This document shows, one piece after another, positions 39,440 through 56,164 of a stretch of DNA of 64,000 bases. The notes below the pieces were generated by a model. The model saw only the letters and a list, made by a program, of their open reading frames with translations, was not told the DNA's origin and ran no database searches. Numbering within the stretch: position 1 is the stretch's first letter; each line of letters starts with the position of its first letter. The translations under genes were made by a program, and so were the position numbers. This stretch comes from an uncultured Thermoleophilia bacterium (GTDB taxonomy: Bacteria > Actinomycetota > Thermoleophilia > UBA2241). The DNA lies in contig CAZFJE010000001.1 in NCBI GenBank assembly GCA_964519555.1, positions 3,654-67,653 of the forward strand, in the 5' to 3' direction.

Positions 39440-40033
39440 CTAATCGACCAGCACGAGCGCGAAGAGGTGGTAAGGATCGTCGGGCGCGCGCACGACATCG
39501 AGCGTCCAGCCGGCGTTGGCGGCGGTGGCGAAGACGTCGATGCCGCAGCCCGCCGGTCCCGGCCTGACGAGCGCGCGTACGTCGCAGTGTTCGGGCCGGC
39601 CGCAGGGCTCGGCCAGGTCGCACGGCCGGCCGCCGGCGATGGCGAAGGCGCGATAGCGACCGGCCAGGAACAGCTCGCGCTCCAGGTCGAGGGCGATGCC
39701 GGCCAGGCGGCGGCTCCAGGCGAGCCACTCGCCGGCCTGGGCCGGCGCCACATCGAGGCGCAGGAGGATGACGGTGCGGTACTCGTCGAGCAGCACGCGC
39801 ATGCGGGCGGGCTCGGGCGAGTGGGGCGGGCAGGTGAGGCAGCGCCCCGCGGTGCAGCCGCCGTACAGGCACTTCATGCGCACCCATTCAGCGGTGACGA
39901 CCGCCGACCCCGCGAGCGGCGCGGCGTCGCTCGCACCCAAGCCGAGCGCTCGTGCGCGCAGCGCTGGGGCGTCGCCGGGAGTATCGCCGACAAGCGGTGG
40001 GCGCCCGGGCTTCGCGCTTAGGTCACTCGCCAT
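39440..40033 (-). CDS. DUF2284-like predicted metal-binding (Cys-rich) protein
   Basis: WVRMKCLYGGCTAGRCLTCPPHSP and RPCDLAEPCGRPEHCDVRALVRPGPAGCGIDVFAT match the two Cys clusters of DUF2284 as I recall them. The start is ATG 40033. Confidence 0.65.
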   Translation of the reverse strand: MASDLSAKPGRPPLVGDTPGDAPALRARALGLGASDAAPLAGSAVVTAEWVRMKCLYGGCTAGRCLTCPPHSPEPARMRVLLDEYRTVILLRLDVAPAQAGEWLAWSRRLAGIALDLERELFLAGRYRAFAIAGGRPCDLAEPCGRPEHCDVRALVRPGPAGCGIDVFATAANAGWTLDVVRAPDDPYHLFALVLVD

Positions 40034-40200
40034 GTGCCCTCCGATCCGCGGCCCGCCGACCTGCCCGGCGCGGCCAAACACACACTGCACATCATCATCG
40101 CACACATTCGCACAATGGCGCTTCCTTGTCATGCTATGCGAGTCGCCGACCGATATCACACGCGTCACTGCGGCGTACTATCAGACGAAAGGGGAATCGC

Positions 40201-41667
40201 GTGTCGGCAGACGCAGGGGGACGCACGCCGAGCGGCTTGCCACTCGCGCCGTTCAGACACGGCGAGCCGACCGCGATGGCGCTGCTCGACATCGAGCGCG
40301 GCCTCGGCGCCACGGTACCGCCGACCGGCGCCGCCGACGAACCCTGCCGCGACACCCTGCTCCTGGTGCGGTTCGACGGACAGCCGCTCGACGTCGTCTA
40401 CCTCGATCGCCCCCCCGACCAACTGCCTCGCGCCGAGCTGTGCGAGCTCCTCTGGTCGCGTCTTGCCGGCACGCTCCGCGAGCACGTCGCCCGAACCGGC
40501 TGCACGCCGCCGCCCACCGGCGCCGCCGACATCGCCCGCTGGGACGACGACGCGGTCGACCGGGCGACTCCCGGCGCGGCGGCGGCGACTCCCGGCGCGG
40601 CGGCGGCGACTCCCGGCGCGGCGACGGCTCCCGGCGCAGTGACCAGCGCGACCGCCTGTGCCGCGGGCGACGCCTCTTCCCCGCCCGACGCGATCGCCGT
40701 CATCGTGCCGACCGGCGGCCGCCCTGCCCAGCTGCGCCGCTGTCTCGCGGCGCTCGCCGAGCAGTCGGGGCCGCCCTGCGAGATCGTGGTCGTCGACAAC
40801 CGGCCCGACCTGTACGAGACCAGGCTCGTCGTCGAGGCCGCAGCGGCGTGCTCGCGGCACCAGATGCGCTATGTCGCCGAGCCGCGTCCGGGCAGCTCGG
40901 TGGCGCGCAATCGCGGGGTGGCGCGGACCACGGCCGGCATCGTGGCCTTCACCGACGATGACGTCGTCGTGGAGCGCGACTGGCTGCGCCTGCTGGTGGC
41001 GCCCTTCGCCCGCGCCGAGGTCGGCGCCACGACCGGCCTCGTGCTGCCGCTCGAGCTCGCGACGCCGGCCCAGAAGCGCTTCGAGCAGTACGGCGGCTTC
41101 GCCAAGGGCCTGCGGCGCTGCGAGTTCGACCTGCACTGCAACCGCGCCGACCATCGCCTGCTCTACCCCTTCTGGGGCGGCGTGTTCGGGTCCGGCAACA
41201 GCATGGCGTTCCGGCGCGAGGCGCTCATCGCGGCGCACGGCTTCGACCCGGCGCTCGGCGCCGGCAGCCGCGCCCTCGCCGGCGCCGACATCGACGCGTT
41301 GAGTGCGGTCGTTCTGCACGGCGGGCGCCTGGTCTACGAGCCCCGGTCGCTCTGCTGGCACGAGCATCGCCGCGACGACGAAGCCCTGCGACGCCAAGTC
41401 TTCAACTACGGCGTGGGCTTCACCGCGATCCTCACCAAGGCGCTCCTGCACGACCGGCGCTTCGCTGCCGCGGCGGCGCGCTCGGTGCCGGTGGCCTGGA
41501 GCCTCCGTCGAGCGCGCTCGGCATCCGGTCGTGATCTCGCGGCGACCACCACGCCGGAGCTCGCGCGTCTGGAGCGTCGCGGCATGCTGCGTGGACCGAC
41601 CCGCTATGTCGACAGCGTGGCGTGGTCTCATCGCCTGGGACTGCAGCGCGTCATCGACGGCGGCTAG
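40201..41667 (+). CDS. GT2 glycosyltransferase with a ~150-aa N-terminal extension (paralog of 43765..45072)
   Basis: Motifs are AVIVPTGGRPAQLRRCL, EIVVVDNRPD, PGSSVARNRG, AFTDDDVVVERDWL, GSGNSMAFRREAL and WHEHRRD. The start is GTG 40201, after AAAGGGGA. Confidence 0.85.
   Translation: MSADAGGRTPSGLPLAPFRHGEPTAMALLDIERGLGATVPPTGAADEPCRDTLLLVRFDGQPLDVVYLDRPPDQLPRAELCELLWSRLAGTLREHVARTGCTPPPTGAADIARWDDDAVDRATPGAAAATPGAAAATPGAATAPGAVTSATACAAGDASSPPDAIAVIVPTGGRPAQLRRCLAALAEQSGPPCEIVVVDNRPDLYETRLVVEAAAACSRHQMRYVAEPRPGSSVARNRGVARTTAGIVAFTDDDVVVERDWLRLLVAPFARAEVGATTGLVLPLELATPAQKRFEQYGGFAKGLRRCEFDLHCNRADHRLLYPFWGGVFGSGNSMAFRREALIAAHGFDPALGAGSRALAGADIDALSAVVLHGGRLVYEPRSLCWHEHRRDDEALRRQVFNYGVGFTAILTKALLHDRRFAAAAARSVPVAWSLRRARSASGRDLAATTTPELARLERRGMLRGPTRYVDSVAWSHRLGLQRVIDGG
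40566..40639 (+). repeat. In-frame 21-bp tandem repeat (3.5 copies) encoding (TPGAAAA)n
   Basis: gactcccggcgcggcggcggc occurs twice exactly, followed by gactcccggcgcggcgacggc and then the partial unit tcccggcgcag. It sits in the linker between the N-terminal extension and the GT2 domain. Confidence 0.9.
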
Positions 41668-41917: not shown

Positions 41918-42793
41918 GTGACCGCGGATCGCGCGGCGCTCGTCGACGCGAGGGCGCCCGAACACCTCGGCGCGGCCGCACGGCTCCCGGCGGTGCCACG
42001 CGTGAGCGTCGTCATTCCCGCTCGCAACGAGGCCCGGAACCTCGAGGCCCTGCTGCCTAGCCTGCCCCCGGGGCTCTTCGAGGTCGTCCTCGTCGACGGC
42101 GCCTCCGACGATGAGACGGTCGCGGTAGCCAGGCGCCTTCGTCCCGACGTGCGCGTCGTGAACCAGACGCGCACCGGCAAGGGCAACGCCCTGACTTGCG
42201 GCTTCGCCGCGTGCCGCGGCGACGTCATCGTCATGCTCGACGCCGACGGCTCGGCCGACCCCGCCGAGATCGCGCGCTTCGTCGAGGCCCTGGTCGCGGG
42301 CGCCGACTTCGCCAAAGGCAGCCGCGGCCTCGACGGCGGCGGCAGCGACGACATCACCCTGCTACGCTCCGCGGGCAACCGCTTTCTCGGCTTCGTCGTC
42401 AACGTCCTCTGCGGCAGCGACTACACCGACCTCTGCTACGGCTACAACGCATTCTGGGCGGCGAGCTGCCTGCCGGTGCTCGACCTCGACTGGGAGACGC
42501 CGGCCGAGCCCGGCGGCGGGCGCTGTCCATGGGGCGACGGGTTCGAGATCGAGACGCTGATCCACCTGCGGGTGGCCGAAGCCGGCCTTTCGGTGGTCGA
42601 GGTGCCGAGCCACGAACTGTCGCGCGTGCACGGCGTGAGCAACTTGAACGCGCCCCGCGACGGGCTGCGCGTGCTGTGGACCATCCTGGTCGAAGTGCGG
42701 CGGGGCCGCCATCTGCGCAAGCGCGAGACGCCGCGCGATGCGGCGGTCGCCGAGAGCGGCGCCCGGCTCCCAGTCTCGACCATCGTCGGGTGA
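41918..42793 (+). CDS. GT2 polyprenyl-phosphate sugar synthase-like transferase (Dpm1/Ppm1-like)
   Basis: Motifs are VSVVIPARNEARNLEALL, VVLVDGASDDET, TGKGNAL, VMLDADGSADP, AKGSR and GFEIETL. The start is GTG 41918, after a 250-bp low-GC spacer. Confidence 0.85.
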   Translation: MTADRAALVDARAPEHLGAAARLPAVPRVSVVIPARNEARNLEALLPSLPPGLFEVVLVDGASDDETVAVARRLRPDVRVVNQTRTGKGNALTCGFAACRGDVIVMLDADGSADPAEIARFVEALVAGADFAKGSRGLDGGGSDDITLLRSAGNRFLGFVVNVLCGSDYTDLCYGYNAFWAASCLPVLDLDWETPAEPGGGRCPWGDGFEIETLIHLRVAEAGLSVVEVPSHELSRVHGVSNLNAPRDGLRVLWTILVEVRRGRHLRKRETPRDAAVAESGARLPVSTIVG

Positions 42794-42800
42794 ACGGCCG

Positions 42801-43760
42801 TTGAGCTCGTCGACCGCCACGCTCACCACGGGCGTCGTGATCTGTGCGTACACCGAGGCGCGCTGGCCGCGGCTCGTGCAAGCCGTCGAGTCGGTGTGCG
42901 CCCAGAGTCATCCGGCCACCGAGGTCGTGCTGGTCGTCGACCACGATCGCGCGCTGCTCGAACGCGCCCGCGCCCGGTTCCCCCAGGTCCGCGTGGTCGC
43001 CAGCACGGGCGCGCCCGGCCTGTCGGGCGCGCGCAACACCGGAGTCCGCAACGCGGCCACCGACATCGTGGCCTTTCTCGACGACGACGCGAGCGCCGCC
43101 CCCGACTGGCTCCACGAGCTGCTCGTGCAGTTCGACGCGCCCGACGTGGCCGGCGTCGGCGGCGCGGCCGCGCCTTGCTGGCCGGCCGGCGCGCGACCGG
43201 CCTGGCTGCCCGAGGAGTTCGACTGGACGGTGGGCTGCAGCTACCGCGGCCTACCCGGCCACGGCGCCGCCCTGCGCAATCCGATCGGTGCCAACATGGC
43301 CTTCCGCCGCGACGACGTGCTTGCGGCCGGCGGCTTTCGCGAGGGTCTCGGACGCGTCGGCGCCAGCCCCGAAGGCGGCGAAGAGACCGAGCTTGCCATC
43401 CGCATCAGGCAGCGACGTCCAGCGACGCGGATCGTGCACTCGACGCGCGCCCGCGTGGTGCACACGGTCGCGCCCGGCCGCCTCAGCCGGCGCTACTTCC
43501 TGGCGCGCTGCTGGGCCGAAGGCCGATCGAAGGCCACGATCGAGGCCCGCGTCGGGCGCAGGGCCGCCCTCGCCAGCGAGCGCCGCTACATCGTGCACAC
43601 GCTGCCCGCCGGGCTCGCGCGCGGCCTGACCGACGCCTGCCGCGGGCAGGTCGCCGGCGGCCTCGGCCGGGCCGTCGCGATCGCACTCGGCCTGAGCGTG
43701 ACGATCGGCGGCTACCTGACGGCGCGAGGCAGCCACAGGGCCCACGCAGCCGTCGCCTGA
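42801..43760 (+). CDS. GT2 glycosyltransferase
   Basis: Motifs are VVICAYTEARWPRLVQAVESV, VVLVVDHD, PGLSGARNTG, AFLDDDASAAPDWL, GANMAFRRD and GGEETELAIR. The start is TTG 42801, 8 nt after the previous stop. Confidence 0.85.
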   Translation: MSSSTATLTTGVVICAYTEARWPRLVQAVESVCAQSHPATEVVLVVDHDRALLERARARFPQVRVVASTGAPGLSGARNTGVRNAATDIVAFLDDDASAAPDWLHELLVQFDAPDVAGVGGAAAPCWPAGARPAWLPEEFDWTVGCSYRGLPGHGAALRNPIGANMAFRRDDVLAAGGFREGLGRVGASPEGGEETELAIRIRQRRPATRIVHSTRARVVHTVAPGRLSRRYFLARCWAEGRSKATIEARVGRRAALASERRYIVHTLPAGLARGLTDACRGQVAGGLGRAVAIALGLSVTIGGYLTARGSHRAHAAVA

Positions 43761-43764
43761 GACC

Positions 43765-45072
43765 ATGTGGTTGCACCGACACAGTGCCCCTGCGCCGGTC
43801 CCGACCGCCGCACGCCGCATCTGGAGCGGCCTGGTCGACCTCGACGGCGACGACCTTCCCGCCGAACCGTTGCTCGCCACAAGCGGCGCCCCCTTCGACG
43901 ACGCCCGCCTGCTCGTGCGCGAGCTCGGCGAGCCCCTCGGCTTCGTGACGCTGCCGCTCACCGACGGCCGGCTCGACCCCACCCTCTTCCGCCAGTCGGT
44001 CGAGCGCACATGGGCCGCCGCGCCGCGCGCGCGGCTGCGGACCGCCGGCGCGTCGCTGCCGGTCGCTTCCCCGACAGGCGACGCTCGCGCTGCTATCGTG
44101 CCCTGGGTCGCCGCGACCCGCGCGACGCCCGTCAGCGTCGTGGTGTGCACCAGAGACCGAGCCGCGGCGCTGGCGCGCTGCCTCAAGGCGCTGCGCGCGG
44201 TCGAGCACGATGCCCTCGAGATCGTCGTGGTCGACAGCGCCCCCACAGGCGACGACGCGGCGCACCTGGTGGCCGACCTGCAACGAAGAGACCGACGGCT
44301 GCGCTACCTGCGCGAAGACCGGCCCGGGCTGTCGCGCGCCCGCAACCGCGGCGCACGTGAGACCACCGCCGAGCTACTCGCCTTCACCGACGACGACGTG
44401 CGCGTCGACCCCCTCTGGGTGGCAGCCCTGGTGCGCGGCTTTCAGTGCCGGCCCGACGTGGGCTGCGTCACGGGCCTCGTGGCGAGCGCCTCGCTCGAGC
44501 TGCCCGGCGCCCAATACTTCGACGCCCGGGTCTCGTGGGCGGCAAGCTGCGAGCAACGACTTTTCGACGCCGCCCGCGGCCCGCGCGACTCGCGCCTGCA
44601 CCCGTACGGCGCGGGTGCGTTCGGCACAGGCGCCACGATGGCGTTCCGGGCGGCAGCGCTGCGCGAGATCGGCGGCTTCGACGAGAGGCTGGGCGCCGGC
44701 TCACCGGCGGGCGGCGGCGAAGACCTCGATGCGTTCGTGCGGGTGCTGCTCGCCGGTTATCGCCTGAGCTACGAGCCGGCCGCGTTGGCCTGGCACGAAC
44801 ACCGCGTCACCCAAGCCGACCTCGGCCGCCAGATGTATGCCTACGGCAAGGGCCTGTCGGCCTACTGGTTCAAGCACCTGGTCGCGCCCCGCTCGCGGCG
44901 CCAGGTGGCGGCTCGCCTGCTCGCCGCCGCCGCCCGGCTCGCCCTCCTGGCGCGCCGCTCGCGGGTGGCCGCCGATCAGGCCGCGGTGAGCCGCTTTGTG
45001 CCGGCCTGCGAGCTCGGCGGCCTGCTCGTTGGCCCGTTTGCCTACCTGCGCGGCCGGCGGACCGCCGCATGA
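43765..45072 (+). CDS. GT2 glycosyltransferase with an N-terminal extension (paralog of 40201..41667)
   Basis: Motifs are VSVVVCTRDRAAALARCL, EIVVVDSAPT, PGLSRARNRG, AFTDDDVRVDPLWV, GTGATMAFRAAAL and WHEHRVT. The N-terminal LLVRELGEPLGFVTLPL parallels LLVRFDGQPLDVVYLDR in the paralog. Confidence 0.85.
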   Translation: MWLHRHSAPAPVPTAARRIWSGLVDLDGDDLPAEPLLATSGAPFDDARLLVRELGEPLGFVTLPLTDGRLDPTLFRQSVERTWAAAPRARLRTAGASLPVASPTGDARAAIVPWVAATRATPVSVVVCTRDRAAALARCLKALRAVEHDALEIVVVDSAPTGDDAAHLVADLQRRDRRLRYLREDRPGLSRARNRGARETTAELLAFTDDDVRVDPLWVAALVRGFQCRPDVGCVTGLVASASLELPGAQYFDARVSWAASCEQRLFDAARGPRDSRLHPYGAGAFGTGATMAFRAAALREIGGFDERLGAGSPAGGGEDLDAFVRVLLAGYRLSYEPAALAWHEHRVTQADLGRQMYAYGKGLSAYWFKHLVAPRSRRQVAARLLAAAARLALLARRSRVAADQAAVSRFVPACELGGLLVGPFAYLRGRRTAA

Positions 45073-47483
45073 GCTCACATCGCCGAGACAAGCCCAGAAA
45101 ACCGTCCCGGGCGGCCCGCAAGTCGGCAGTGGTCTTTACCTGCTCGCGCTGCGGCGAACGCTTTACCGACGGCGAGGCGCTCATGGCCCACGCCGCCGGC
45201 CACAACGGCTCGCGCGTCGATCTGCAGCGCCTGCGCCGCAGGCCCAACGAGCCGCCCGCGACTGCCCAGACCGCCGCCGAACTGCGGGCCAGCGCGCGGG
45301 TGCGCCTCGCCTTCGTCACCCTGTTCGCGGGGTCGTTTGCCCTGTACGCCTTCGGCCGCAGCCTCGAACTGCCCGCCGTCGCGCTCGCCGGCACCCTGGG
45401 CGTGCTGTTCTTCGGTATCGGTGCCGCGCCGCTGCAGCTCGCGCGTGGGCCGCTGCTGGCCGTCCGGCTCGGCGTAGCCGGCCTGGCCGGCCTGTCGGTC
45501 ATGACGATAGGCGGCGCGCTCATGGTCCTCGCGCCGCTGAGCAGCGCGTGGCACCCGTTTCTGTGGGCCGCGATCGTGGTGGCGGCGGCTGCGGCGCTCG
45601 ACGTTGCAGCCGTAGGGCAAGCCCTGCACGACCTGGCCCGGGCCCGCAAGATCTCGGCCCGCGTGCGGTTCGCCTCGCCACTGGGCGACGCGGCTCGCCG
45701 CAGCAGCCTGCCCGTAGCCATCCTCGTCGTCGCCGGCACGGCGGCGTGGCTTGGCGCGGCGCTTGCCGCCGGCCACCTCTCTCCCGGTATCGGCGGCTTT
45801 CTCGTGCGTATCCCACCCGTCTGGTACGCGGGTCTGGCGACACTGATCGTGGCCGTCGTGCTCTCGCGCGGCCGACGCGAGATCTACCCCGCCCTGGCCA
45901 CCGTGTCGCTCGCGTTGGCGCTGACCGTCACTCCCGCGCTCATCTACGCGATGCCGCGCTCGCAGTCGGCCGGCAAGCATGTCCAGCTCGTCCAGCTCAT
46001 CATGACGCACCACCACCTGAGCGCCAGCGCCGGCATCTACGCGGCCTACTCGGCCTTCTTTGCCGGCATCGCCTGGGTGTGCACACTCGCCCGCGTGTCC
46101 GACTCGATCAGCCTGGCGACCTGGTGGCCCGCCATCATCGGCCTCGTCGGTCTCGCCGAGCTGCGCTTCCTGTTCGGCCGTCTGCACCGGTCGAGCTTCC
46201 AGTGCTGGGCCGCCATCATGGTCGTCATGCTCGTCAACGCGTTAGGCGCCGACTACTTCTCGCCGCAGTCGATCGGTTTCGTCATGGCGCTCGGGGTGTA
46301 CGGACTCGCGCTGGCCGGCACCGAGCCCCTCGCCGTCGACGCCTGGCTCCGAGCCTCGCTGCTGTGCCTGGCGGGCTGTGCCATGGCCACGACTCACGAG
46401 CTCAGCCCCTTCATCGCGGGCGGCGTGTTGCTCGTGCTCACCGTCTATGGCCGCACGCGGCCCCGCTGGTCGGCGGCGGCAGTGCTCGTGCCCGCGGCGG
46501 TCTGGGCGGCGATCGACTACCACGTCCTGGCGGGCTACCTGTCGTTCTCGCACCTCCTGCACCTCTCGAACTTCGAGCCGCCCAAGACGGTGGCGGCGCC
46601 TGACTTGGGCCGTCAGGCGATCGTCGGCCTGAGCTCCTACGCACTGCTGCTCGGCTTGCTCCTACTGATCGCGGTCGCCTTCGTCGGTTTCGCGCGCCAC
46701 CGGCGCGAGCCCTGGGCCTGGGCCTTCATGGCTAGCGCTGGAGTCGGCCTCGTCTGCATCGCGGTGAACCCCTACGGCAACGAAGGCATCTTTCGCGCCG
46801 CATTGTTCGGCATCCCCTGGCTGGCGCTCGTCGCGGCGCGGGCGGTAGACCATCCGCCGAACCGTCGCCTCGCCGTCGCCTTCGCCGGCGTGACCCTGCT
46901 GCTGCTCGCCACGTTCCTGGTGGCGAGCTTCGGCATGGACGGCTCCAACGTCATGCGCAAGTCCGACCTGGCTTCGCTGCGCGCCTTCGAAAGCCAGGCG
47001 CCCACCGGCTCGTGCCTCCTGGACCTGGGCTATGGCGACCTGCCCGACAGCGTCCCCAGCCTCCCCGCGACCAGGCATTTCACCGATCTCGAGACGCTCG
47101 ACCAGTCGCTGGGCACAGTTGCCGCCCGGCTCCCGGGGCAGCCGAGCGCCGACGACCTCGCCGCGCTCACCAGCGTCTACGCGCAGACGGCCGGCGTTGG
47201 CGACGGACCCGCTGCCGGCGACCTCTATGTGCGCTGGTCGCCAGCCCAGTCCGAATACGCCTACGAATACGGGCTGCAGTCGCTCCGCCAGTCCGCAGCG
47301 TGGCGCGCCCTGTTGCTCGCCAGCCCCGACTGGAGCGTGGTCTATGCTAGCCACGGTACGTTGCTGATGCGCCTGTCGGCGGCCGCCGAGCGCGAGCTTG
47401 CCACCTCACACGCGGCAGCCGCCATGCGAGCCACGGTCGCGACAGCGATGGCGGCCAACCCAAGGCCGGGCGTGGCGCGATGA
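45069..47483 (+). CDS. 805-aa polytopic membrane protein with an N-terminal classical C2H2 zinc finger and a C-terminal soluble domain (putative polymerase or GT-C-like enzyme)
   Basis: The ATG overlaps the previous stop (ATGA). Residues 23-45, FTCSRCGERFTDGEALMAHAAGH, match F-x-C-x2-C-x3-F-x5-L-x2-H-x3-H. They are followed by about 16 hydrophobic helices and a ~200-aa hydrophilic tail. Confidence 0.8.
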   Translation: MSSHRRDKPRKPSRAARKSAVVFTCSRCGERFTDGEALMAHAAGHNGSRVDLQRLRRRPNEPPATAQTAAELRASARVRLAFVTLFAGSFALYAFGRSLELPAVALAGTLGVLFFGIGAAPLQLARGPLLAVRLGVAGLAGLSVMTIGGALMVLAPLSSAWHPFLWAAIVVAAAAALDVAAVGQALHDLARARKISARVRFASPLGDAARRSSLPVAILVVAGTAAWLGAALAAGHLSPGIGGFLVRIPPVWYAGLATLIVAVVLSRGRREIYPALATVSLALALTVTPALIYAMPRSQSAGKHVQLVQLIMTHHHLSASAGIYAAYSAFFAGIAWVCTLARVSDSISLATWWPAIIGLVGLAELRFLFGRLHRSSFQCWAAIMVVMLVNALGADYFSPQSIGFVMALGVYGLALAGTEPLAVDAWLRASLLCLAGCAMATTHELSPFIAGGVLLVLTVYGRTRPRWSAAAVLVPAAVWAAIDYHVLAGYLSFSHLLHLSNFEPPKTVAAPDLGRQAIVGLSSYALLLGLLLLIAVAFVGFARHRREPWAWAFMASAGVGLVCIAVNPYGNEGIFRAALFGIPWLALVAARAVDHPPNRRLAVAFAGVTLLLLATFLVASFGMDGSNVMRKSDLASLRAFESQAPTGSCLLDLGYGDLPDSVPSLPATRHFTDLETLDQSLGTVAARLPGQPSADDLAALTSVYAQTAGVGDGPAAGDLYVRWSPAQSEYAYEYGLQSLRQSAAWRALLLASPDWSVVYASHGTLLMRLSAAAERELATSHAAAAMRATVATAMAANPRPGVAR

Positions 47484-49051
47484 GCGACGCTCCGGCTGCG
47501 GCCGCTCTCTCAGAGCCGTACGACCGCCGCCCGGCGACGCGCCTCGCGGAGTCCGAGCAGCCGGCCGCCGCCCGGCTCGACGTCGAAGCGCAGACCGCCC
47601 AAGCACTGCGCGGCCTCTTCGGACGCGACTCGATCTACGTCGTGTTGTGGGGCGTGCAGCTCGGCGTCGCCGCGCTGTGCACGCCGGTCATCACGCGCGT
47701 GCTCGGGCCCGTGAGGTTCGGCGTGGTGGCCTCGTCGATCGCGGTCATGCAGGTCCTGGTCGCTCTCGGCGGCGCGAGCCTGCAGACGGCCGTGCAATGG
47801 CAGTTCGCCAAACCAGGCGGCGACCACGGTGCCCGCCGCCTGGTCACGCTCGCGATGGTGGTCTCGGGACTCGTGTTCCTCGTGGCCGACGCCACCGGCC
47901 CGTGGTGGTGTCCACGACTCGGACTCGGAGCGTACGGGGGCGCCGTGCGCTACGCGGTCATCTGGGCGGCCCTGACCGCCGTCAGCAACGCCGCCCTCGG
48001 GCTCATCCGCAGCCGCGACCGGCTCTCAGCGTTTGCCGTCGTCAGCCTCATGCAGTCGGTCGTGGCGGAAGCTCTGAGCCTGCTGCTCGTGGTGGCGGTG
48101 CATCGCACGGCGGCCGAGTTCCTGCTCGGCCAGGCGGTCGCGCAGGCCGTGGCAGTGGCCATAGCGCTCGCGGTGGCCCGCCCGGCGCTGATACGGCGAC
48201 GCCACGCCCGCATGCTCGGCGCCGGCCTGCGCTACTCGATCGCCCTGGTGCCGGCCGCCCTGGCGATCTTCGCCCTGCAGGCGGCCGACCGCTTGATCGT
48301 CCAGCACGACCTGGGGTCGGCAGCGGTCGCCCGCTACTCGATCGCCAACAACATCGGCTCGTTACCGATCCTGCTGCTCAGCGTCCTGAACGCGGTCTGG
48401 CTGCCGCGTGTCTTTGCGGTTGCGACCAGCAGCTTACGGCGCTCTGTCCTGACACAGAGTCGTGACGCACTGTACGGTCTCCTGGTCCCGGCGGTGATCG
48501 GTCTCGCCGTCGGGGCGCCACTCGTCCTGCGCGTCTGGGCGCCCGCCTCGTACCGTCCCGACGGGCTGCAGCTCGTGGTCGCTCTGGTGGCCATCGCCTC
48601 GCTTCCGGTCGCCGGGATGCTGGCCGCCACCAGAGTGCTGCTCGTCGCGGGCAGCACCCTGGCGATCGGGCTCCTCACCCTGGCCGCCGGCGCGGCCAAC
48701 ATCGCCTTGAACATCGTGCTCGTGCCGCTCCTGGGCATCGCGGGATCGGCATTGGCCGCGCTCGCAAGCTACGCCTTGCTGCACGCCCTGCTCGCCCGTG
48801 CGTCGTCGCGTGACCAGCGCCTGCCGAGGCCGCGGACCACGCTCCTCATCAAGCTCGCCGTGGGCGCCGCCATCGCGCTGGCGGCCAGCCGGCTGCCGAC
48901 GACGACGCCGTTCCTGGCGGCCCGCATGGTCATCGCCCTCGGCTGCCTTGCGGCCATGGGCACCGTGATGCTGACGATCGTCGCGCCCAAGGGCGGCTCG
49001 CTTGCCGCGCGCGTCGCGGCATTGCTCGACCCGCTGTCGCGGACGGTCTGA
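47480..49051 (+). CDS. Wzx-like polysaccharide flippase (MOP superfamily)
   Basis: About 14 TM helices. DSIYVVLWGVQLGVAALCTPVITRVLGPVRFGVV and the LRYSIALVPAALAIFALQAADRLIV pattern are as in polysaccharide biosynthesis (PST) proteins. There is an ATGA overlap with the previous gene. Confidence 0.75.
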   Translation: MSDAPAAAALSEPYDRRPATRLAESEQPAAARLDVEAQTAQALRGLFGRDSIYVVLWGVQLGVAALCTPVITRVLGPVRFGVVASSIAVMQVLVALGGASLQTAVQWQFAKPGGDHGARRLVTLAMVVSGLVFLVADATGPWWCPRLGLGAYGGAVRYAVIWAALTAVSNAALGLIRSRDRLSAFAVVSLMQSVVAEALSLLLVVAVHRTAAEFLLGQAVAQAVAVAIALAVARPALIRRRHARMLGAGLRYSIALVPAALAIFALQAADRLIVQHDLGSAAVARYSIANNIGSLPILLLSVLNAVWLPRVFAVATSSLRRSVLTQSRDALYGLLVPAVIGLAVGAPLVLRVWAPASYRPDGLQLVVALVAIASLPVAGMLAATRVLLVAGSTLAIGLLTLAAGAANIALNIVLVPLLGIAGSALAALASYALLHALLARASSRDQRLPRPRTTLLIKLAVGAAIALAASRLPTTTPFLAARMVIALGCLAAMGTVMLTIVAPKGGSLAARVAALLDPLSRTV

Positions 49052-49976
49052 TACGGCACCGCCACTCGTCATCGTCCTCGCCCACGACGACGCGGCCAAG
49101 GTCGCGCGCCTCATCGCCGCGCTGGACGGCCTCGAGGTCTTGCTACACTGCGACCGCCGCACGCGCGGATCGGTCTTCGGCGACATGATGCGCGGCGCCG
49201 GCGCCAACGTGCGCGCCCTGCCTCGTCTGACCACGACCCTGGCGAGCTGGTCGCTCGTCGATGCCGAGCTGCGTGCGCTGCGGGTCTGGCTCGAGACCAG
49301 CCGCGCCGAGCACGCGATCGTCCTGTCGGGCTCCTGCTATCCGTTGGTCTCGGTGTCCGAGCTGGCCGACGAGCTCGCGCTGTGGACGGGTAAGTCGCGC
49401 CTCTCCCTCAACCCGCTGCCCCACGAGCCCTGGAGCACGCGACGCAACGACGACGGCGGGCTGTGGCGCCTGAGGCGACGCTTCGTCACCGTCGGTGGAC
49501 GGGTCGTCTTCGTGGGCGGCATCCCCCTGCGCACCGTACGGCGGGAACCGCCCGGCGACCTGACGCTGTGCGCCTCCTCGCAATGGAAGATCTACTCGCG
49601 ACGCCACGGCGCCGCGCTGCTGCGCGTGCTCGACGAGCGGCCCGACCTGCTGCGCTTCTGGCGCACGACCCTCGTGCCCGACGAGTCGTGCGTCGCCTCG
49701 ATCCTGAGCTCACCCCAGCTGGTCGGCGACCTGAGCGACGATGTCTGCGACGACCTGCCCTGGTATCTCGACTGGAACGGCTCGACGCGCGCGGGACACC
49801 CCCGGTGGCTGACGGCCGCCGACCTCGGCGCCCTCGCGGCGGCGCGCGCCGCGCCGCCGCGTCCCACCGACCGCTGGGTCGACGGTCGCGACGGCTTTCG
49901 CAAGCTGTTCGCCCGCAAGATCTCGTCACGCGAGCCCGACCTGCTCGACGCGCTCGACCAGCGCCTGCTCGCCTGA
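49002..49976 (+). CDS. GT14 (core-2/I-branching enzyme family) glycosyltransferase
   Basis: Motifs are LVIVLAHDDAAKVARLIAAL, IVLSGSCYPL, CASSQWKIYSRRH, LVPDESCVASIL, YLDW and FARKIS. The only canonical start upstream of the first beta-strand is TTG 49002, which overlaps the flippase gene by 50 nt. Confidence 0.75.
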   Translation: MPRASRHCSTRCRGRSDTAPPLVIVLAHDDAAKVARLIAALDGLEVLLHCDRRTRGSVFGDMMRGAGANVRALPRLTTTLASWSLVDAELRALRVWLETSRAEHAIVLSGSCYPLVSVSELADELALWTGKSRLSLNPLPHEPWSTRRNDDGGLWRLRRRFVTVGGRVVFVGGIPLRTVRREPPGDLTLCASSQWKIYSRRHGAALLRVLDERPDLLRFWRTTLVPDESCVASILSSPQLVGDLSDDVCDDLPWYLDWNGSTRAGHPRWLTAADLGALAAARAAPPRPTDRWVDGRDGFRKLFARKISSREPDLLDALDQRLLA

Positions 49977-50004: not shown

Positions 50005-50212
50005 GCAGTCGCACCACACTCCCCGGAAGCCCGCCATGCCCCGTGAGGCAGGCCGGCCGTCGTACCGTGACGGACTTCACGACGTCGCAAGGTGACCCTG
50101 CTCCCCCCGCGAGGTAGACGACGAACGTGGCATGACAGGCCCAGTACCTACGCTCGGGCGACTTGTTCCCGACGCCTCTGGGTATGGGTCTTCAACTTTG
50201 CCGCGCAGGGTT

Positions 50213-51493
50213 ATGAGGGTCTCCAGTGCGGCCGATGCCGTACACAGGTTCAGGTATGTCCCCCTCACGAAAAGGCCCGGCACAGTGACCCAGAAGCCCC
50301 CCGACGACGGTGCCATCGCGCTCACCGCGCTGCCGGCGAAAGGCCGGCCGTCGTTCGTCGTCACCGGACTCTTAGGCTTGTCGTTGGTCGTCGCCGCACT
50401 CGTGGCGTTGTCGCTCATCGCCGCGCCGCTCGCCCACGCCGGCGCCGCGCGCACCGCTTCGTTTTCGTGCCGGGCGAAAGTCGTGTCGGTCAACGCCGCC
50501 GCAGGCACGCTCGTGGTCGACCTGCAGAGCGGCTCGCCGGTGATCATGGCGCTTCGCGCCGTCAACGTCACGATGACCACCAGCCCGAAGACCGCGTTCG
50601 TCGACGCCACGCACGGCTCGACGCCGCTCTCGCTGACCGACATGGTCGCCGGCGCGACCGTTCAGGCAAGCGGCGCCGTCGGCCGCACCGGCCGCGGTTC
50701 GACCTGCCAAGCCGCGAAGGTCGTCCTTGAGAGCCTGCCCGCCGACAAGCTGCTGTGGTCCGACGAATTCAGCGGAGCGGCGGGGTCGTCGCCCGACCCC
50801 ACCAAGTGGCTTGTCGACACCGGGGGCAGCGGCTTCGGCAACAACGAGCTCGAGTACTACACGTCGCGGGCGAGCAACGTCGCTCAGGACGGCGCCGGCC
50901 ACCTGAAGATCACCGCGCTCCGCGAGAGCTACAGCGACGGCGCGGTCACGCGCTCCTACACGTCGGGCAAGATCGAGAGCAAAGGTAAGTACAACACCTC
51001 CTACGGGTCGATCCAGGCGCGCATCAAGCTGCCCGCGGGCCAGGGACTCTGGCCCGCCTTCTGGGCCATCGGCGCCGACATCGACACGGTGGGCTGGCCG
51101 CACTGCGGCGAGATGGACATCATGGAGAACCTCGGCCGCGACCCCTACCGCGTGTTCGGCAGCCTTCACGGTCCGTGCGCGTCGGGCACTCAGGCCTACG
51201 GGCTGACGAGCTCCACGCGCAGCGTTGTCGCGCTCTCGCAGGGGTTCCACGTGTACGGCGTCGACTGGTCGCCGAGCCTCGTGCAGATGACCCTCGACGG
51301 CGTGCCCTACGCCTCGTACACCCCGACCTCGCTCCCACACGGCTGCCAGTGGGTATTCACCAAACCCGCCTTCCTGATCTTGGACCTGGCGGTCGGCGGC
51401 AACTGGCCGGGCGCGCCCACGGCGGCGACACGCTTTCCGGCCACCATGCTGGTCGACTGGGTGCGCGCCTACGGCTACACGACCCAGGGCTGA
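50213..51493 (+). CDS. Secreted GH16 beta-glucanase with an N-terminal Cys-headed beta-domain (same family as 34560..35540)
   Basis: The signal/anchor is FVVTGLLGLSLVVAALVALSLIAAPLAHA. The domain FSCRAKVVSVNAAAGTLVV..MVAGATVQASGAV spans 50462..50731. GH16 motifs are LLWSDEF, NNELEYYT, GLWPAFWA and the catalytic GEMDIME (ExDxxE). The start may be ATG 50213, GTG 50285 or the listed 50132. Confidence 0.85.
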   Translation: MRVSSAADAVHRFRYVPLTKRPGTVTQKPPDDGAIALTALPAKGRPSFVVTGLLGLSLVVAALVALSLIAAPLAHAGAARTASFSCRAKVVSVNAAAGTLVVDLQSGSPVIMALRAVNVTMTTSPKTAFVDATHGSTPLSLTDMVAGATVQASGAVGRTGRGSTCQAAKVVLESLPADKLLWSDEFSGAAGSSPDPTKWLVDTGGSGFGNNELEYYTSRASNVAQDGAGHLKITALRESYSDGAVTRSYTSGKIESKGKYNTSYGSIQARIKLPAGQGLWPAFWAIGADIDTVGWPHCGEMDIMENLGRDPYRVFGSLHGPCASGTQAYGLTSSTRSVVALSQGFHVYGVDWSPSLVQMTLDGVPYASYTPTSLPHGCQWVFTKPAFLILDLAVGGNWPGAPTAATRFPATMLVDWVRAYGYTTQG

Positions 51494-52401: not shown

Positions 52402-53292
52402 TTACGACACTGTCGACAGCTCGACCGGCGACGACAGGTCGAGGCCGCGCCAGGCGTCGTCGGCCAGCCCCACCGCGGCGCCGCACTTGTAGTCGAGCGA
52501 GTGACGCCCGGGGATCGAGCGGCAGACCGCGGCGGCGCACTGTTCCATAAAGGCAAAGGCGGTGTCGGAGTCGGCCCGGTGACCGGCGAGCGAGGCCTCG
52601 ACCTGCGCGTCGCGAAACGCCGTCTCGCCGACCGCGCCGAGCGCGACCCGGGCCGTGGTAAGGCGCCCCTCGGCGGCCTGGTAGCCCACCACGACGGCCA
52701 CGCTCAGCCGTGCGACCGAGAGCGTCGAGCGCGAGCCGATCTTGGCGAACGTCGCGCGAACGCCGTCGTCGAGAGGCGCAAAGGAAAAGCCGACGATGGC
52801 CTCGCCACAGCTCAGCGTGGTCTTCCCGGCGCCGGCCAGCACTGCTTCGAGCGGTTCGCGCCGCGTCCGTCCGGCGCCGTCCCAGATCTCGACCTCGGCG
52901 CCCAGCGCGAGCAGCGCCGGGATGCTGTCGCCGCACGGCGAGGCGTTGGCGACGTTGCCCCCGACCGTCGCCACGTTGCGGATCTGCAGAGAACCGACCG
53001 CCGCCGCGGCCAGGGCGAGGCAGCGGGCGTGGCGCACCACCAGGGGATCGGCCTGCAACCGGGTGAACGTGGCCATCGCACCCACCCGCAGAAGGCCGTC
53101 GTCGAGCGTCACGTGGTCGAGCTCGGCCATGGCAGAGAGGTCGACGATCAGGTCGGGGCGGTGGCGTTGCTGGGTCGTGGCCCGTACCAGATCGGTGCCG
53201 CCAGCCAGCAGCCGGCTGTCGCGCGTCATCTCGCCCAGGGCGGCCGTGAGCTCGGAGCGGTCGCGCGGAGTCAGGAGCCTCGTGGCGCTCAT
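52402..53292 (-). CDS. Molybdenum hydroxylase FAD-binding (medium) subunit
   Basis: Motifs are LLAGGTDLV, IDLSAMAELDHV and LQIRNVATVGGNVANASPCGDSIPALLAL. The start overlaps the 2Fe-2S subunit stop by 4 nt. Confidence 0.85.
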   Translation of the reverse strand: MSATRLLTPRDRSELTAALGEMTRDSRLLAGGTDLVRATTQQRHRPDLIVDLSAMAELDHVTLDDGLLRVGAMATFTRLQADPLVVRHARCLALAAAAVGSLQIRNVATVGGNVANASPCGDSIPALLALGAEVEIWDGAGRTRREPLEAVLAGAGKTTLSCGEAIVGFSFAPLDDGVRATFAKIGSRSTLSVARLSVAVVVGYQAAEGRLTTARVALGAVGETAFRDAQVEASLAGHRADSDTAFAFMEQCAAAVCRSIPGRHSLDYKCGAAVGLADDAWRGLDLSSPVELSTVS

Positions 53293-53897
53293 CGGGAGTC
53301 GTCCCCGGCCGCGGGCGTATCGGCCGACAGGAGACCGCCGAACACGGGCGGCACACCGGCTTCGTTGAGCGCGCGCGACGCTTCGCCGTCGGCGGCGGGC
53401 TCGGCGGCGCTTTCAGGCCCCCACGCCTCGCCGCCGGCCGCCAGCGCGCGGCCCGCGGCGGTCACCGCCGCGATGATGGCGCCGTAGCCGGTGCAGCGGC
53501 AGAGGTTGCCGGCCAGGGCCACGCGGATCTGACGCTCGGAGGGCTGCGGGTGAGCCAGCAGCAGGGCCTTGGCCGACATGAGCATGCCCGGCGTACAGAA
53601 GCCACATTGCACGGCGCCGTGGTCGATGAACTGCTGCTGCAGCACGTCGAGCTCGCCGTCGCGGGCAAGGCCTTCGACGGTGAGCACACGCTTGTCGCGC
53701 ACCTGTGCGGCGATCACGAGACACGAATCGACCGCGCGATCGTCGATCAGCACGGTGCAGGCGCCGCACTCTCCCTCGCCGCAGCCCTCTTTGGTGCCGG
53801 TCAGACCCAACTCGTCGCGCAAGACGTCGATGAGCCGCGCGGCCGGGTCGACGTCGAGCTCGCGCCGCACTCCGTTGACCTCGAATGACAGGCGCAT
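53289..53897 (-). CDS. Molybdenum hydroxylase (2Fe-2S)-binding small subunit
   Basis: Motifs are GCGEGECGACTV, VQCGFCTPGM and NLCRCTGY. It has an unusually long Ala/Gly/Pro-rich C-terminal tail of about 50 aa. Confidence 0.9.
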   Translation of the reverse strand: MRLSFEVNGVRRELDVDPAARLIDVLRDELGLTGTKEGCGEGECGACTVLIDDRAVDSCLVIAAQVRDKRVLTVEGLARDGELDVLQQQFIDHGAVQCGFCTPGMLMSAKALLLAHPQPSERQIRVALAGNLCRCTGYGAIIAAVTAAGRALAAGGEAWGPESAAEPAADGEASRALNEAGVPPVFGGLLSADTPAAGDDSR

Positions 53898-56164
53898 CAG
53901 TCGCCCTGCCCCTGGGCGAGCGCGGCTACGATCTTCTCAGGCGTCACCGGCAGGTCGGCGAGCGAGGTGCCGAGCGCCTGGTTGATCGCGTTCACCACGG
54001 CGGCGGCCGTAGGCACGACCGCGATCTCGCCCACGCTCTTGGCGCCGTACGGCCCCTCGTCGCCCTCGTGCTCGACGAGCAGCACGCGCACCTTGGGCAT
54101 GTCGGGCGCGTTCACGATGTGGTAGGTCTTGAAGCCGCCGGCTGGGGGTCGGCCGCGATCGTCGAGGCGGACCTCTTCGCACAGGGCCGAGCCGATCCCC
54201 ATCTGCACGGCGCCCACGAACTGGCCCTCGACCATGAGGCGGTTGATGGCCTGCCCCACGTCGCCCACGGCCAGAAAATCGGTGACCGTCGTGAGGCCGG
54301 TGGCGCAGTCGACGCTGACCTCGGCGAACTGCACCGAGTAGGCGCCCGGGTTGCTGGTCGCGCGGTGCGTGTAGTGCACGAAGGCGTCTTCGCTCAGGCG
54401 TGTCTTGGCGGCCATAACGACCGCCCCGTAAGGCAGGTACTCGGCCGGGCCGACGACCGCTTCGACGCGGCCGTCGTGGGCCCTGAGCTCGTGCGCCGGC
54501 CGCTGCATGACGAGGGCGGCCAGTTCGACGAGGCGCGCTTTCAGCGCGGCCGCGGTGCCGCGCGCGGCGGCGCCGCAGACGTAGGTGACGCGGCTGCCGA
54601 AACAGCCGAAGTCGTAGGGCGTCGTGTCGCTGTCGGCTTCGGTGATCGAGACCAGGTCAGGGCTCATCTCCAGCTCCTCGGCGACGATCAGCGCCATCGC
54701 CGTGCGTGTGCCGCAGCCGACCTCGTGCAGGCTCGCGCTCAGGGCGACGCTGCCGTCTTCGTTCATCTTCATGGCCATCGTACTGAAGTCGGGAAAATCG
54801 GTCGACAGGATGCCGTTCTTGTGGGCGCCGCAGGCCATGCCCACGCCGATGCGACGCCGCTCGTCGCCGCGCGGGGTGCGCAGGCGTTCGCGCCAGCCGA
54901 AAGCCTCGGCGCCGCGCTCGAGGCACTCGCGCACCCGGGCGTCGCCCAACGACATGCCGCTGAGGGCATCGATGTCATGAGGCTGCACCAGGTTCTGAAG
55001 GCGCAGGTCGATGGGGTCGATGCCGAGCTCGCGGGCCACCTGGTCGAAGGCGATCTCGAGGGCGGTCACGAACTCGGGCGCGCCGTAGCCGCGACAGCCG
55101 CCGCCGACAGGGGTCGTCGTATAGGCCACCCGGCCGTGGTGATGGTAGTGCGGCACTCGGTAGAGCCGGGTGAGCTTGTGAGCCATCATGCCGGCGTAGT
55201 CGGGCGAGCTCGTCGCGTAAGCGCCGGCATCGAGGACGGTGTCGACGTCGACGTCTTCGAGGCGCCCGTCGCGCGACACGCCCAGCGAGACACGTGACAC
55301 GGTGGCCGGCCGCACCATGGTGCCCGCGATGCACTGCGCCCGGTCGAGCACGAGCTTGACCGGGCGCTTGGTGGCCATCGCCATGAAGGCGGTCACGGGC
55401 TCGAGAATGAACTCCTGCTTGCCGCCGAACGACCCGCCCATGGGCACCTTGATCACCCGCACGCGGTTGTAGCTCAGGCCGAAGAGGTCGGCCACCACGG
55501 TGCGTGCCCCAAAGACGCTCTGCGTGGGGCTCCAGATGGTGAGCTTGCCCGACTCGTCGTAGTCGGCCAGGCAAAGGTGTGGTTCGATCGCGGCGTGGTG
55601 GAGCCGCGGCGTCGCCACGGTGATGGTCACGGTGACGGCGTCGGCCCGGCGCGCGATGGGCTCGCCCACCGTCTGGTCGAACTCGTGCAGCAGGTTGCCC
55701 GCGGGGTGGATGGGCGACGCGCCCTCGCGCAGCGCCGCCTCGGGCGTGAGGAGCTCGGGGAGCTCCTCGTAGTCGACGTCGACCAGCGCAACGGCGTCGG
55801 CGGCGGTCTGCGCGTCGGTGGCCACGACCGCCGCCACGCGGTCGCCCACGAAGCGCGCCGTGGCGGTGAACAGGGTCTCGTCTTCGGGGCAGAGGGCCTG
55901 TCCGGGCAGGATGCGGTAGCGGCTGTAGGGGGCGGCCGGGGCGTTCAGGTGAGAGAAGACGGCGATCACGCCGGGCAGAGCCAGGGCCTTGCTCGCGTCG
56001 ATGCCGACGATGTGGGCGTGAGCCACGGGGCTGAGCAGCAGCCTCGCGTGGAGCATGCGCGGCAGATCCATGTCGATGCCGTAGACAAGGCCGCTGGTCA
56101 CTTTCAGCGCGGCATCGGCGATCGGGTGATCCCGGCCGACGACGCGCAACCCGCTCTGTGTCAC
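53897..56164 (-). CDS. Molybdopterin-binding large subunit of a xanthine dehydrogenase/aldehyde oxidase-family enzyme
   Basis: 755 aa with GGSFGGK, GCRGYGAPE, EVGCGTRTAMA, GVGQAIN-type motifs and a C-terminal YGAKSVGE. The substrate cannot be inferred. Confidence 0.9.
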   Translation of the reverse strand: MTQSGLRVVGRDHPIADAALKVTSGLVYGIDMDLPRMLHARLLLSPVAHAHIVGIDASKALALPGVIAVFSHLNAPAAPYSRYRILPGQALCPEDETLFTATARFVGDRVAAVVATDAQTAADAVALVDVDYEELPELLTPEAALREGASPIHPAGNLLHEFDQTVGEPIARRADAVTVTITVATPRLHHAAIEPHLCLADYDESGKLTIWSPTQSVFGARTVVADLFGLSYNRVRVIKVPMGGSFGGKQEFILEPVTAFMAMATKRPVKLVLDRAQCIAGTMVRPATVSRVSLGVSRDGRLEDVDVDTVLDAGAYATSSPDYAGMMAHKLTRLYRVPHYHHHGRVAYTTTPVGGGCRGYGAPEFVTALEIAFDQVARELGIDPIDLRLQNLVQPHDIDALSGMSLGDARVRECLERGAEAFGWRERLRTPRGDERRRIGVGMACGAHKNGILSTDFPDFSTMAMKMNEDGSVALSASLHEVGCGTRTAMALIVAEELEMSPDLVSITEADSDTTPYDFGCFGSRVTYVCGAAARGTAAALKARLVELAALVMQRPAHELRAHDGRVEAVVGPAEYLPYGAVVMAAKTRLSEDAFVHYTHRATSNPGAYSVQFAEVSVDCATGLTTVTDFLAVGDVGQAINRLMVEGQFVGAVQMGIGSALCEEVRLDDRGRPPAGGFKTYHIVNAPDMPKVRVLLVEHEGDEGPYGAKSVGEIAVVPTAAAVVNAINQALGTSLADLPVTPEKIVAALAQGQGD

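Follow-up and report, generated by a model that had tools for sequence, protein, structure and literature searches.

The window analyzed here comprises 64,000 nucleotides from an uncultured Thermoleophilia bacterium (NCBI GenBank assembly GCA_964519555.1, contig CAZFJE010000001.1, positions 3,654 to 67,653), has a G+C content of 71.6%, and harbors a gene, termed X, whose predicted product consists of an N-terminal C2H2 zinc finger, a GT-C-like polytopic membrane body and a C-terminal globular domain. Gene X is located on the forward strand at 45069..47483, with its ATG at 45069 and its TGA at 47481-47483; the open reading frame (ORF) has 805 codons including the stop and encodes 804 residues, and not the 805 given in a preliminary description of this DNA. 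At the 5′ end, the ATG of X overlaps the TGA of a GT2 glycosyltransferase gene (43765-45072) at 45069-45072, and at the 3′ end, its TGA overlaps the ATG of a Polysacc_synt/Wzx flippase gene (47480-49051) at 47480-47483; the ATGA coupling to glycosyltransferase and flippase genes described previously is thus seen at both ends. Scans of the window for tRNAs and Rfam families found none, and a promoter and terminator scan of the 39-52.5 kb region returned nothing exceeding the shuffled expectation. The segments of X, all on the forward strand, are as follows (pLDDT, predicted local distance difference test score; TM1, first transmembrane helix):

45069..45134, forward strand: residues 1-22, a basic disordered tail of net charge +7 (sequence; pLDDT <50 for residues 1-19; charge comparison; third-position bias against the ortholog L001).
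45135..45203, forward strand: residues 23-45, the C2H2 finger (motif, zf-C2H2 match, conservation, AlphaFold, Foldseek).
45204..45299, forward strand: residues 46-77, a flexible basic proline-rich linker, then an amphipathic helix leading into TM1 (pLDDT 58-64 at residues 41-60; helix from residue 64).
45300..46928, forward strand: residues 78-620, the membrane body with ~16-17 helices (hydropathy, Lys plus Arg per loop, AlphaFold helices, conservation, GT-C-like fold).
46929..47480, forward strand: residues 621-804, the C-terminal α/β globular domain, probably extracytoplasmic (DSSP of the model, span parity, positive-inside pattern).

Analysis of the G+C content by codon position revealed that the third-position (GC3) signature moves to the X frame at 45069. 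Upstream of this point the three positions of the X frame have values of 0.90/0.77/0.59, the coding frame there being that of the GT2 gene; the values are 0.59/0.64/0.73 for X codons 1-22, 0.65/0.61/0.87 for the finger and 0.70/0.52/0.90 for the membrane body. Compared to L001, which is 73% identical and has the same ATGA junction at the start of X, the first 70 codons differ by 13/6/29 changes at the first, second and third codon positions, and the finger (codons 21-47) by 3/1/7. The public gene call P0001 begins at Val21 instead of Met1 and still includes the finger. Owing to the GC3 switch at 45069, the third-position-biased changes and the presence of the finger even in the Val21 call, a start codon located after the finger is very unlikely; a downstream start was rejected, and the start upstream of the finger, on which the preliminary description depended, is retained.

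Residues 23-45 read FTCSRCGERFTDGEALMAHAAGH (F-T-C-SR-C-GER-F-TDGEA-L-MA-H-AAG-H), exactly as reported before, and match F-x-C-x2-C-x3-F-x5-L-x2-H-x3-H at all positions, with a 12-residue Cys-to-His spacer and a glycine after the second cysteine. The basic stretch noted earlier, HRRDKPRKPSRAARK, is present directly before the finger, and an RLRRRP stretch lies directly after it. Given the amino-acid composition of 26 window ORFs, the strict motif is expected at 5.6e-11 per position, or ~8e-5 per proteome of 1.5 million residues. When all six frames of the window and of 79 related actinobacterial loci (1.34 Mb) were scanned with a relaxed motif, matches were confined to the N-terminus of the X family. 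On both grounds, a chance occurrence of the motif was rejected.

In a scan of the N-terminal 94 residues, zf-C2H2 (PF00096) aligned with residues 23-45 over all 23 model positions (18.2 bits, E-value 0.0034). The models zf-C2H2, zf-C2H2_4 and zf-C2H2_6 each align residues 22/23-45 end to end, at 16.6-18.2 bits versus gathering cut-offs of 25-27. Among 61 aligned X-family members, the Pfam scan detected zf-C2H2 in 12 (best E-value 5.4e-8), zf-C2H2_4 in 10, and zf-C2HE in the four variants with Glu as the fourth ligand. Public precomputed matches to PF00096/PF13894 already flag P0004-6, P0008 and P0013 (marked ‘faint’ for P0004), thus the motif is not invisible to databases. The best 60 matches listed by a phmmer search with a 36-residue finger peptide against PDB sequences are all eukaryotic C2H2 proteins; the totals are high because many weak per-finger matches are summed, the best single-domain i-Evalue being ~0.6. 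A word-indexed search with the finger alignment scored 0 of 190 candidates and is uninformative about other bacterial carriers.

In the AlphaFold2 model of full-length X, two β-strands (residues 23-24 and 31-32) and an α-helix (residues 35-45) form a ββα unit with a pLDDT of ~83, and the same unit appears in a separate 46-residue model. Structural similarity search against PDB using Foldseek with the finger model revealed that the best 50 matches are all classical C2H2 fingers (ZNF484, SUPERMAN, SALL4, Tramtrack, CTCF and others), most with a root-mean-square deviation of ~0.6-2.2 Å over 23-34 residues, at a probability of up to 0.98 and E-values of 0.09-1.2, which are weak as expected for so small a domain. 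Altogether, sequence and model indicate that this element is a genuine, classical-type C2H2 finger with a predicted ββα fold, which presumably binds zinc.

The finger shares the full consensus, the spacer, the glycine after the second cysteine and the predicted ββα fold with the classical TFIIIA/Zif268-type fingers (PF00096/PF13894). Unlike these, it belongs to a bacterial host, comes as one or two fingers ~24 residues apart with neither tandem array nor TGEKP linker, and sits on a polytopic membrane enzyme instead of a soluble regulator, with acidic or small residues at the DNA-reading positions. Similar to the Ros/MucR finger (Agrobacterium Ros, PDB 2JSP), it is bacterial, Cys2His2 and single, with basic flanks in the subclade of the window; however, Ros/MucR has a 9-residue spacer, compared to 12 residues and a minimal ordered domain of ~25 residues between low-confidence segments for X. 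No Ros structure was found among the top 50 Foldseek matches. A Ros/MucR-type finger was rejected on spacer length (12 versus 9) and domain size, and the classical type proposed in the preliminary description is borne out. Ros/MucR is a soluble H-NS-like DNA binder of α-proteobacteria (PMC9779718).

A protein search with X returned 94 relatives, 13 of which have the motif at the N-terminus. The finger adopts three forms: a single finger with a basic tail (the window, P0002 and P0003); two fingers ~24 residues apart (P0004, P0006, P0008 and P0013, and also P0005, the first finger of which has Arg for the last His); and a form with an altered last ligand (Cys in P0007; Glu/Asp in P0009-11, P0014 and P0062). 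In 18 aligned fingers from 13 proteins, F23, C25, C28, F32 and H41 never vary and position 38 is always Leu or Phe, whereas identity to the window finger at the remaining positions is only 24-44% among the more distant fingers. Of the 18 fingers, 12 have His as the fourth ligand, four have Glu, one has Cys (shifted by one position) and one has Arg. Ligand conservation, which the preliminary description took as decisive, is therefore seen for both cysteines and the first histidine. By charge comparison across the finger clade, the +7 basic tail was found only in the window’s own subclade.

Simple distance trees, built by neighbor-joining from the body only (residues 78-640), group every finger-bearing protein into one clade, the sister clade of which has short domain-free N-termini of 27-54 residues. 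The monophyly of the finger clade in these trees indicates that the finger was gained once, then duplicated in one branch and changed in its fourth ligand in another. The motif was absent from all 140 newly returned representatives of a membrane-body profile search (2,587 clusters at E <= 1e-3). As judged from the sequences compared, the finger is lineage-specific, belonging to one clade of a very large family; of the two outcomes foreseen earlier, conserved or lineage-specific, the former holds within the clade and the latter within the family. The finger-carrying genomes are uncultured soil metagenome-assembled genomes (MAGs) labelled Thermoleophilia or Actinomycetes (L001-L004, L029). One of the MAGs, DATIYD01 (Thermoleophilia SMAG_U15266), holds two X paralogs (L002 3626 and L003 67) with different finger versions: P0007 has one C2HC finger and lies in a complete GT2-X-Wzx-GT14 cluster, and P0013 has the two-finger form and is flanked by three GH16 genes.

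The full-length AlphaFold2 model of X has a pLDDT of 88 and a predicted template modeling score of 0.88. The ~16 transmembrane helices claimed in the preliminary description agree with the 16 hydropathy peaks, whereas the AlphaFold helices suggest ~17 membrane spans; the C-terminal domain, put at ~200 residues, is smaller in the model (~165-185 residues). A topology built from hydropathy, AlphaFold helices and Lys plus Arg counts per loop suggests that the chain crosses the membrane an odd number of times (~17), starting on the inside and placing the C-terminal domain outside. Outward-facing loops would then hold the conserved polar residues R297, K303, H304, D395, H443, N501, E572 and R576, and D624, D633, Y734 and W755 are conserved in the C-terminal domain.

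Foldseek search with the full model ranked AftA (8if8), DPY19 (7zlh) and ArnT (5ezm and 5f15) at positions 1-4, with a probability of 0.98-1.00, pointing to a GT-C-like fold; EmbC (7bve) appears further down the list. The TM-scores to target are 0.43-0.46 for AftA and ArnT, and at these moderate values the likeness between X and GT-Cs is at the fold level only. These best structural matches are GT-Cs with a C-terminal periplasmic domain, and X shares with them the layout of many spans followed by a C-terminal globular domain, and a GT2 and flippase context as in systems with lipid-linked donors. X differs from them in having no detectable sequence similarity and no conserved first-loop acid: no conserved acidic column was found between residues 94-135, the first loop after TM1 by an uncertain loop assignment, where position 100 is G/D/Q/E. 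The conserved acids lie elsewhere (E271, D395, E572, D624 and D633). On the model, X is GT-C-like in fold and is not classed as a canonical GT-C member. The preliminary description had offered a glycan polymerase or a GT-C enzyme; the latter is in line with the fold, whereas a Wzy or WaaL identity was rejected, as no Wzy_C Pfam match occurs in 61 members and WaaL (7tpg) ranks 41 with a probability of 0.03. To our knowledge, no GT-C has an N-terminal zinc finger, and none was found described in the literature searched.

Neither Pfam nor NCBIfam has a model that matches the membrane body of X or of the 61 aligned members, and a profile of the X family had no match at E <= 10 among PDB sequences. 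A search of 1.84 billion proteins with the membrane-body profile gave 2,587 representative clusters (50% identity) at E <= 1e-3, of which 1,113 reach E <= 1e-30. Members from the culturable genera Actinoplanes, Catenuloplanes, Kineococcus and Pseudoclavibacter have no finger. The body thus defines a large unnamed family, mainly of Actinomycetota where records carry a taxon label, with invariant motifs including GADYFSPQ (393-400) and YGNEGIFR (569-576). The window X has Asp at residue 178 (45600-45602), where 57 of 61 homologs have His and one other aligned sequence has Asp.

Gene X lies within a glycan cluster composed of the following genes, all on the forward strand:

within 39952..41667, forward strand: GT2a, a GT2 glycosyltransferase (Pfam GT2 domain at residues 245-482 of the listed ORF). 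The domain does not begin until residue 245, and translation probably starts further downstream than listed.
41918..42793, forward strand: GT2b, AglJ-like or polyprenyl-phosphate hexosyltransferase-like (TIGR04182 (AglJ), E-value 1.5e-27; Dol-P hexose transferase, E-value 1.7e-11; both below cut-off).
42738..43760, forward strand: GT2c, AglG-like, which would act on a lipid-linked sugar (NF041394 (AglG), 194.5 bits, E-value 2.5e-57, below the equivalog cut-off; Pfam GT2).
43765..45072, forward strand: GT2d, a GT2 glycosyltransferase ATGA-coupled to X (Pfam; overlap; fused to the N-terminus of X in some relatives).
47480..49051, forward strand: a Wzx-type flippase (Polysacc_synt) ATGA-coupled to X (Pfam; overlap; Wzx-X fusions).
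49002..49976, forward strand: a GT14 ‘Branch’ glycosyltransferase (PF02485, E-value 1.6e-12; syntenic across loci).
50132..51493, forward strand: a GH16 glycoside hydrolase (Pfam; NCBIfam EglC-like; secondary SKN1/KRE6 match, E-value 1.9e-9; recurs in related clusters).

As listed, the GT2b and GT2c ORFs share 56 nucleotides, and the start of GT2c is probably further downstream. Two families in this cluster are better known in eukaryotes, namely GT14 ‘Branch’ (core-2/I-branching) and the GH16 with a match to fungal SKN1/KRE6 (β-1,6-glucan synthesis). Solirubrobacterales, Actinoplanes and Catenuloplanes share the order GT2b-GT2c-GT2d-X-Wzx-GT14(-GH16), and Kineococcus and others keep part of it, whether or not the finger is present. 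In the two-finger relative P0004 (L080), an 875-residue double-GT2 gene overlaps the start of X by 4 nucleotides, and a GH16/KRE6 gene adjoins.

GT2b, the most conserved gene of the cluster, is likely the initiating enzyme, and no phosphoglycosyl transferase was seen in the cluster. The two most conserved GT2s best match AglJ and AglG of haloarchaeal N-glycosylation (AglJ, AglG, AglR, AglS/AglB), and a Wzx/AglR-type flippase and a GT-C-like enzyme are likewise adjacent; the difference is that the cluster scores far below the equivalog cut-offs and X lacks the STT3/AglB signature, and the analogy is drawn from family names. On these names, the most economical reading of the cluster is a polyprenyl-monophosphate-linked oligosaccharide pathway that is formally Agl-like. 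The AglJ-like GT2 would prime a polyprenyl-phosphate lipid, the AglG-like and other GT2s would lengthen the sugar chain in the cytoplasm, and Wzx would flip the lipid-linked chain over the membrane. X, with its GT-C-like fold facing the extracytoplasmic side, would then transfer or polymerize the chain outside, and GT14 and GH16 may branch or remodel the product. The adjacency of X to AglJ-like and AglG-like GT2s and Wzx, and the conserved synteny, suggest that X may use a polyprenyl-phosphate-linked donor at the outer face of the membrane; its putative catalytic role as a transferase or polymerase is drawn from the model and this analogy.

The N-terminus of X that carries the finger is probably cytoplasmic, in line with the preliminary description: no hydrophobic segment precedes it, the tail has a charge of +7, and GT2 or Wzx is fused at the same end in relatives. 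These fusions provide an independent argument for this orientation. They occur in several lineages as GT2-X and Wzx-X proteins of 913-1,293 residues and join X at residues ~63-80, just before TM1. The fused partner is of GT2d type in P0015, P0027-29, P0035 and P0083, which fall in the finger-less sister clade, of GT2c type in P0087, and of Wzx type in P0026, P0033 and P0037. Where the genes are separate, the GT2 gene overlaps the start of X by 4 nucleotides in the window, L001 and the two-finger P0004. The N-terminal module itself differs between clades of the X family, being absent, a disordered tail, DUF2510, one finger or two fingers. DUF2510 (PF10708, best E-value 4.6e-13) occupies the position of the finger in another clade (P0025, P0031, P0040, P0042, P0051, P0052, P0056-P0058 and P0063), which suggests that a second small cytoplasmic module was recruited to that spot.

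In its helix residues and charge, the finger is unlike DNA-reading fingers. Helix positions -1, 2, 3 and 6 are D, E, A and A in the window and mostly D/E/A/N/S, unconserved, across the clade; the net charge of the finger ranges from -2 to +3, and the ~24-residue spacer of the two-finger relatives contains no TGEKP-type linker. The features typical of DNA reading (tandem fingers, TGEKP-like linkers, and basic or polar residues at -1/2/3/6) are thus not seen, with the caveat that they are typical of the family and do not define the fold. The nucleic-acid-binding role raised in the preliminary description fits these properties poorly, all the more as the basic tail is restricted to one subclade. 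The further idea raised there, that the finger could couple glycan assembly to a signal from the cytoplasm, is speculative.

Since the partners fuse at the N-terminus of X, the N-terminal module is interchangeable and the finger is unlike a DNA reader, we tentatively favor a protein-docking role, while granting that this reading may well prove wrong. In one clade of uncultured Thermoleophilia-like actinobacteria, the probably cytoplasmic tail of X has gained a classical C2H2 finger that is predicted to fold by itself and is tethered ~30 residues from TM1. As a zinc-stabilized docking module, the finger would keep one of the cytoplasmic components of the assembly line at the membrane enzyme X; the GT2 that is translationally coupled to X is the most plausible candidate. 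Such docking would correspond, without a covalent link, to the GT2-X and Wzx-X fusions in sister lineages.

Several observations weigh against this docking model. In L029, of the C2HE subclade, GT2b and not GT2d lies directly upstream of X, thus a fixed pairing of the finger with GT2d is not universal. The finger-less sister clades keep the same GT2-X arrangement and evidently function without a finger. The fusion ORFs derive from metagenome assemblies, and unfused close relatives lie between them in the tree (e.g. P0022 versus P0027). Either the genes have fused and split more than once at the ATGA junction, or assembly frameshifts there have produced some of these ORFs. As for the underlying assignments, the window finger scores 18.2 bits, under the PF00096 gathering cut-off of 25.2 bits; AlphaFold was trained on C2H2 fingers, and the predicted fold is not independent of the motif; and the GT-C assignment depends on TM-scores of 0.43-0.46, with no conserved acid in the first loop.

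Instead of a protein, the basic tail and single finger might bind DNA or the operon mRNA in the manner of GAGA factor or Ros, making X a membrane-tethered nucleic-acid binder that couples transcription or translation of the cluster to the membrane enzyme, which we consider unlikely. The subclade of the window, with its +7 tail before the finger and RLRRRP after it, offers the basic flanks that stabilize DNA binding by single fingers such as Ros (PMC9779718), and weak matches to zf-C2H2_jaz and zf-met, which are RNA-binding finger models, occur in two to three members. The fingers of archaea and archaeal viruses (e.g. AFV1p06) provide a further parallel, as they have a eukaryote-type fold in prokaryotes, are often single, and bind DNA as single C2H2 proteins (PMC3541406); however, they are small soluble DNA binders, whereas the X finger is an appendage of a membrane enzyme without DNA-reading residues, and no bacterial homologs of the archaeal proteins were found in that study (PMC3541406). 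Moreover, the acidic or small residues at positions -1, 2, 3 and 6 extend clade-wide, the fingers are neutral to acidic, no basic tail is present in the two-finger and C2HC/C2HE subclades, whose flanks carry -3 to +3, and the duplicated fingers have no TGEKP-type linker. Basic residues beside TM1 are in any case expected under the positive-inside rule. A narrower form of this idea, in which a true 12-spacer finger independent of the Ros/MucR line acts with the +7 tail, in the window subclade, as a membrane-tethered nucleic-acid binder linking operon expression to the glycan machine, is in our judgment distinctly unlikely.

Alternatively, the finger might be a regulatory or structural zinc module with no dedicated partner, which senses zinc or thiol redox state, docks to anionic lipids or packs on the cytoplasmic loops of X itself. 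The invariant Cys pair and first His combined with a fourth ligand varying among His, Cys, Glu and Arg would alter metal affinity or lability, and the finger is held on a short flexible tether near the membrane surface. A precedent for cytoplasmic zinc or thiol switches on membrane proteins is found in the ZAS-type anti-sigma factors (zf-HC2), which as a rule cross the membrane once and bind a sigma factor, the zinc module acting by protein-protein contact. They resemble X in layout, with a cytoplasmic N-terminal zinc module, a transmembrane part and an extracytoplasmic part, but differ in fold and in motif, H-x3-C-x2-C versus C-x2-C...H-x3-H; the ZAS motif is absent from X. No zf-HC2 match was found on X or the 61 members, and no sigma-factor family match among the neighboring genes examined. 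An anti-sigma zinc domain was rejected on ligand order, the missing zf-HC2 match and the lack of an adjacent sigma factor. For the zinc module in general, no gene of the neighborhood is linked to zinc or redox homeostasis, which leaves it an improbable explanation.

The finger may also be a neutral or decaying accretion, that is, a lineage-specific appendage arisen de novo or acquired horizontally, without an important role. Its confinement to one clade of a very large family, sister clades that manage without it, and the loss or replacement of the fourth ligand in finger 1 of P0005 (Arg) and in the C2HE subclade would fit this explanation. We nevertheless give it little credence, as all 18 fingers agree at five structural positions while identity between the membrane bodies has fallen to ~51-57%, the finger was duplicated with both copies kept, its substitutions are biased to the third position (3/1/7), and C2HE fingers (PF16278 matches) offer a precedent for Glu in the fourth ligand position.

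Translation from Met39 or later, which would leave the finger outside the protein and would agree with the lack of a strong Shine-Dalgarno sequence evident upstream of 45069 and with a public call that does not start at Met1, is hardly credible, given that the finger lies within the Val21 call, the GC3 signature changes frame at 45069, the protein sequence of tail and finger is conserved with synonymous-biased changes, the ATGA overlap is kept in L001 with the same 4-nucleotide overlap for P0004 in L080, and fingers are detectable by Pfam in 12 relatives.

Beyond the glycan cluster, the window contains the following genes:

5279-6439, reverse strand: a GAF-GGDEF protein.
7592-12967, reverse strand: a 1,791-residue signaling protein with a 7TM receptor region, PAS, four GAF, HD, GGDEF and HD_5 (HD-GYP-like) domains.
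22626-24533, reverse strand: a DUF2064 and radical-SAM/SPASM fusion protein.
35643-37004, forward strand: an LPG_synthase_TM family membrane protein.
52402-56164, reverse strand: a three-gene molybdopterin dehydrogenase set (CoxL/CoxS/CoxM-like).

The first two form a dense cyclic-di-GMP signaling neighborhood ~30 kb upstream of the glycan cluster. The DUF2064/radical-SAM, LPG_synthase_TM and molybdopterin dehydrogenase genes have no evident link to the finger.

Classical C2H2 fingers have been described as ‘practically absent’ or ‘nearly absent’ in bacteria (PMC3541406; bioRxiv 10.1101/2025.07.27.667033), with a 2013 count of 489 bacterial motif examples in UniProt, or 0.003% of proteins (PMC3541406). 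The characterized bacterial fingers are of the Ros/MucR type, and the debate on origin centers on that structurally different domain (PMC9779718). Neither a description of the X family nor a C2H2 finger on a bacterial glycosyltransferase was found in the literature searched; the novelty is a known fold in an unreported host and architecture. Its significance is bounded by a lineage-specific finger, uncultured organisms and a function that is only proposed. Within these bounds, selection has maintained a textbook 12-spacer finger in a bacterial clade even as it was duplicated and its ligands were exchanged, on a membrane enzyme rather than a transcription factor. This provides a natural example that a minimal ββα finger exists and persists in bacteria. 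Were the nucleic-acid reading true, X would supply the first classical zinc finger with a function in bacterial envelope biogenesis and a natural case for how ββα fingers originate. Here a zinc finger likely serves protein docking along a glycan assembly line, and it gives access to a large unnamed actinobacterial GT-C-like family (~2,600 clusters at 50% identity) together with the gene cluster conserved around it.

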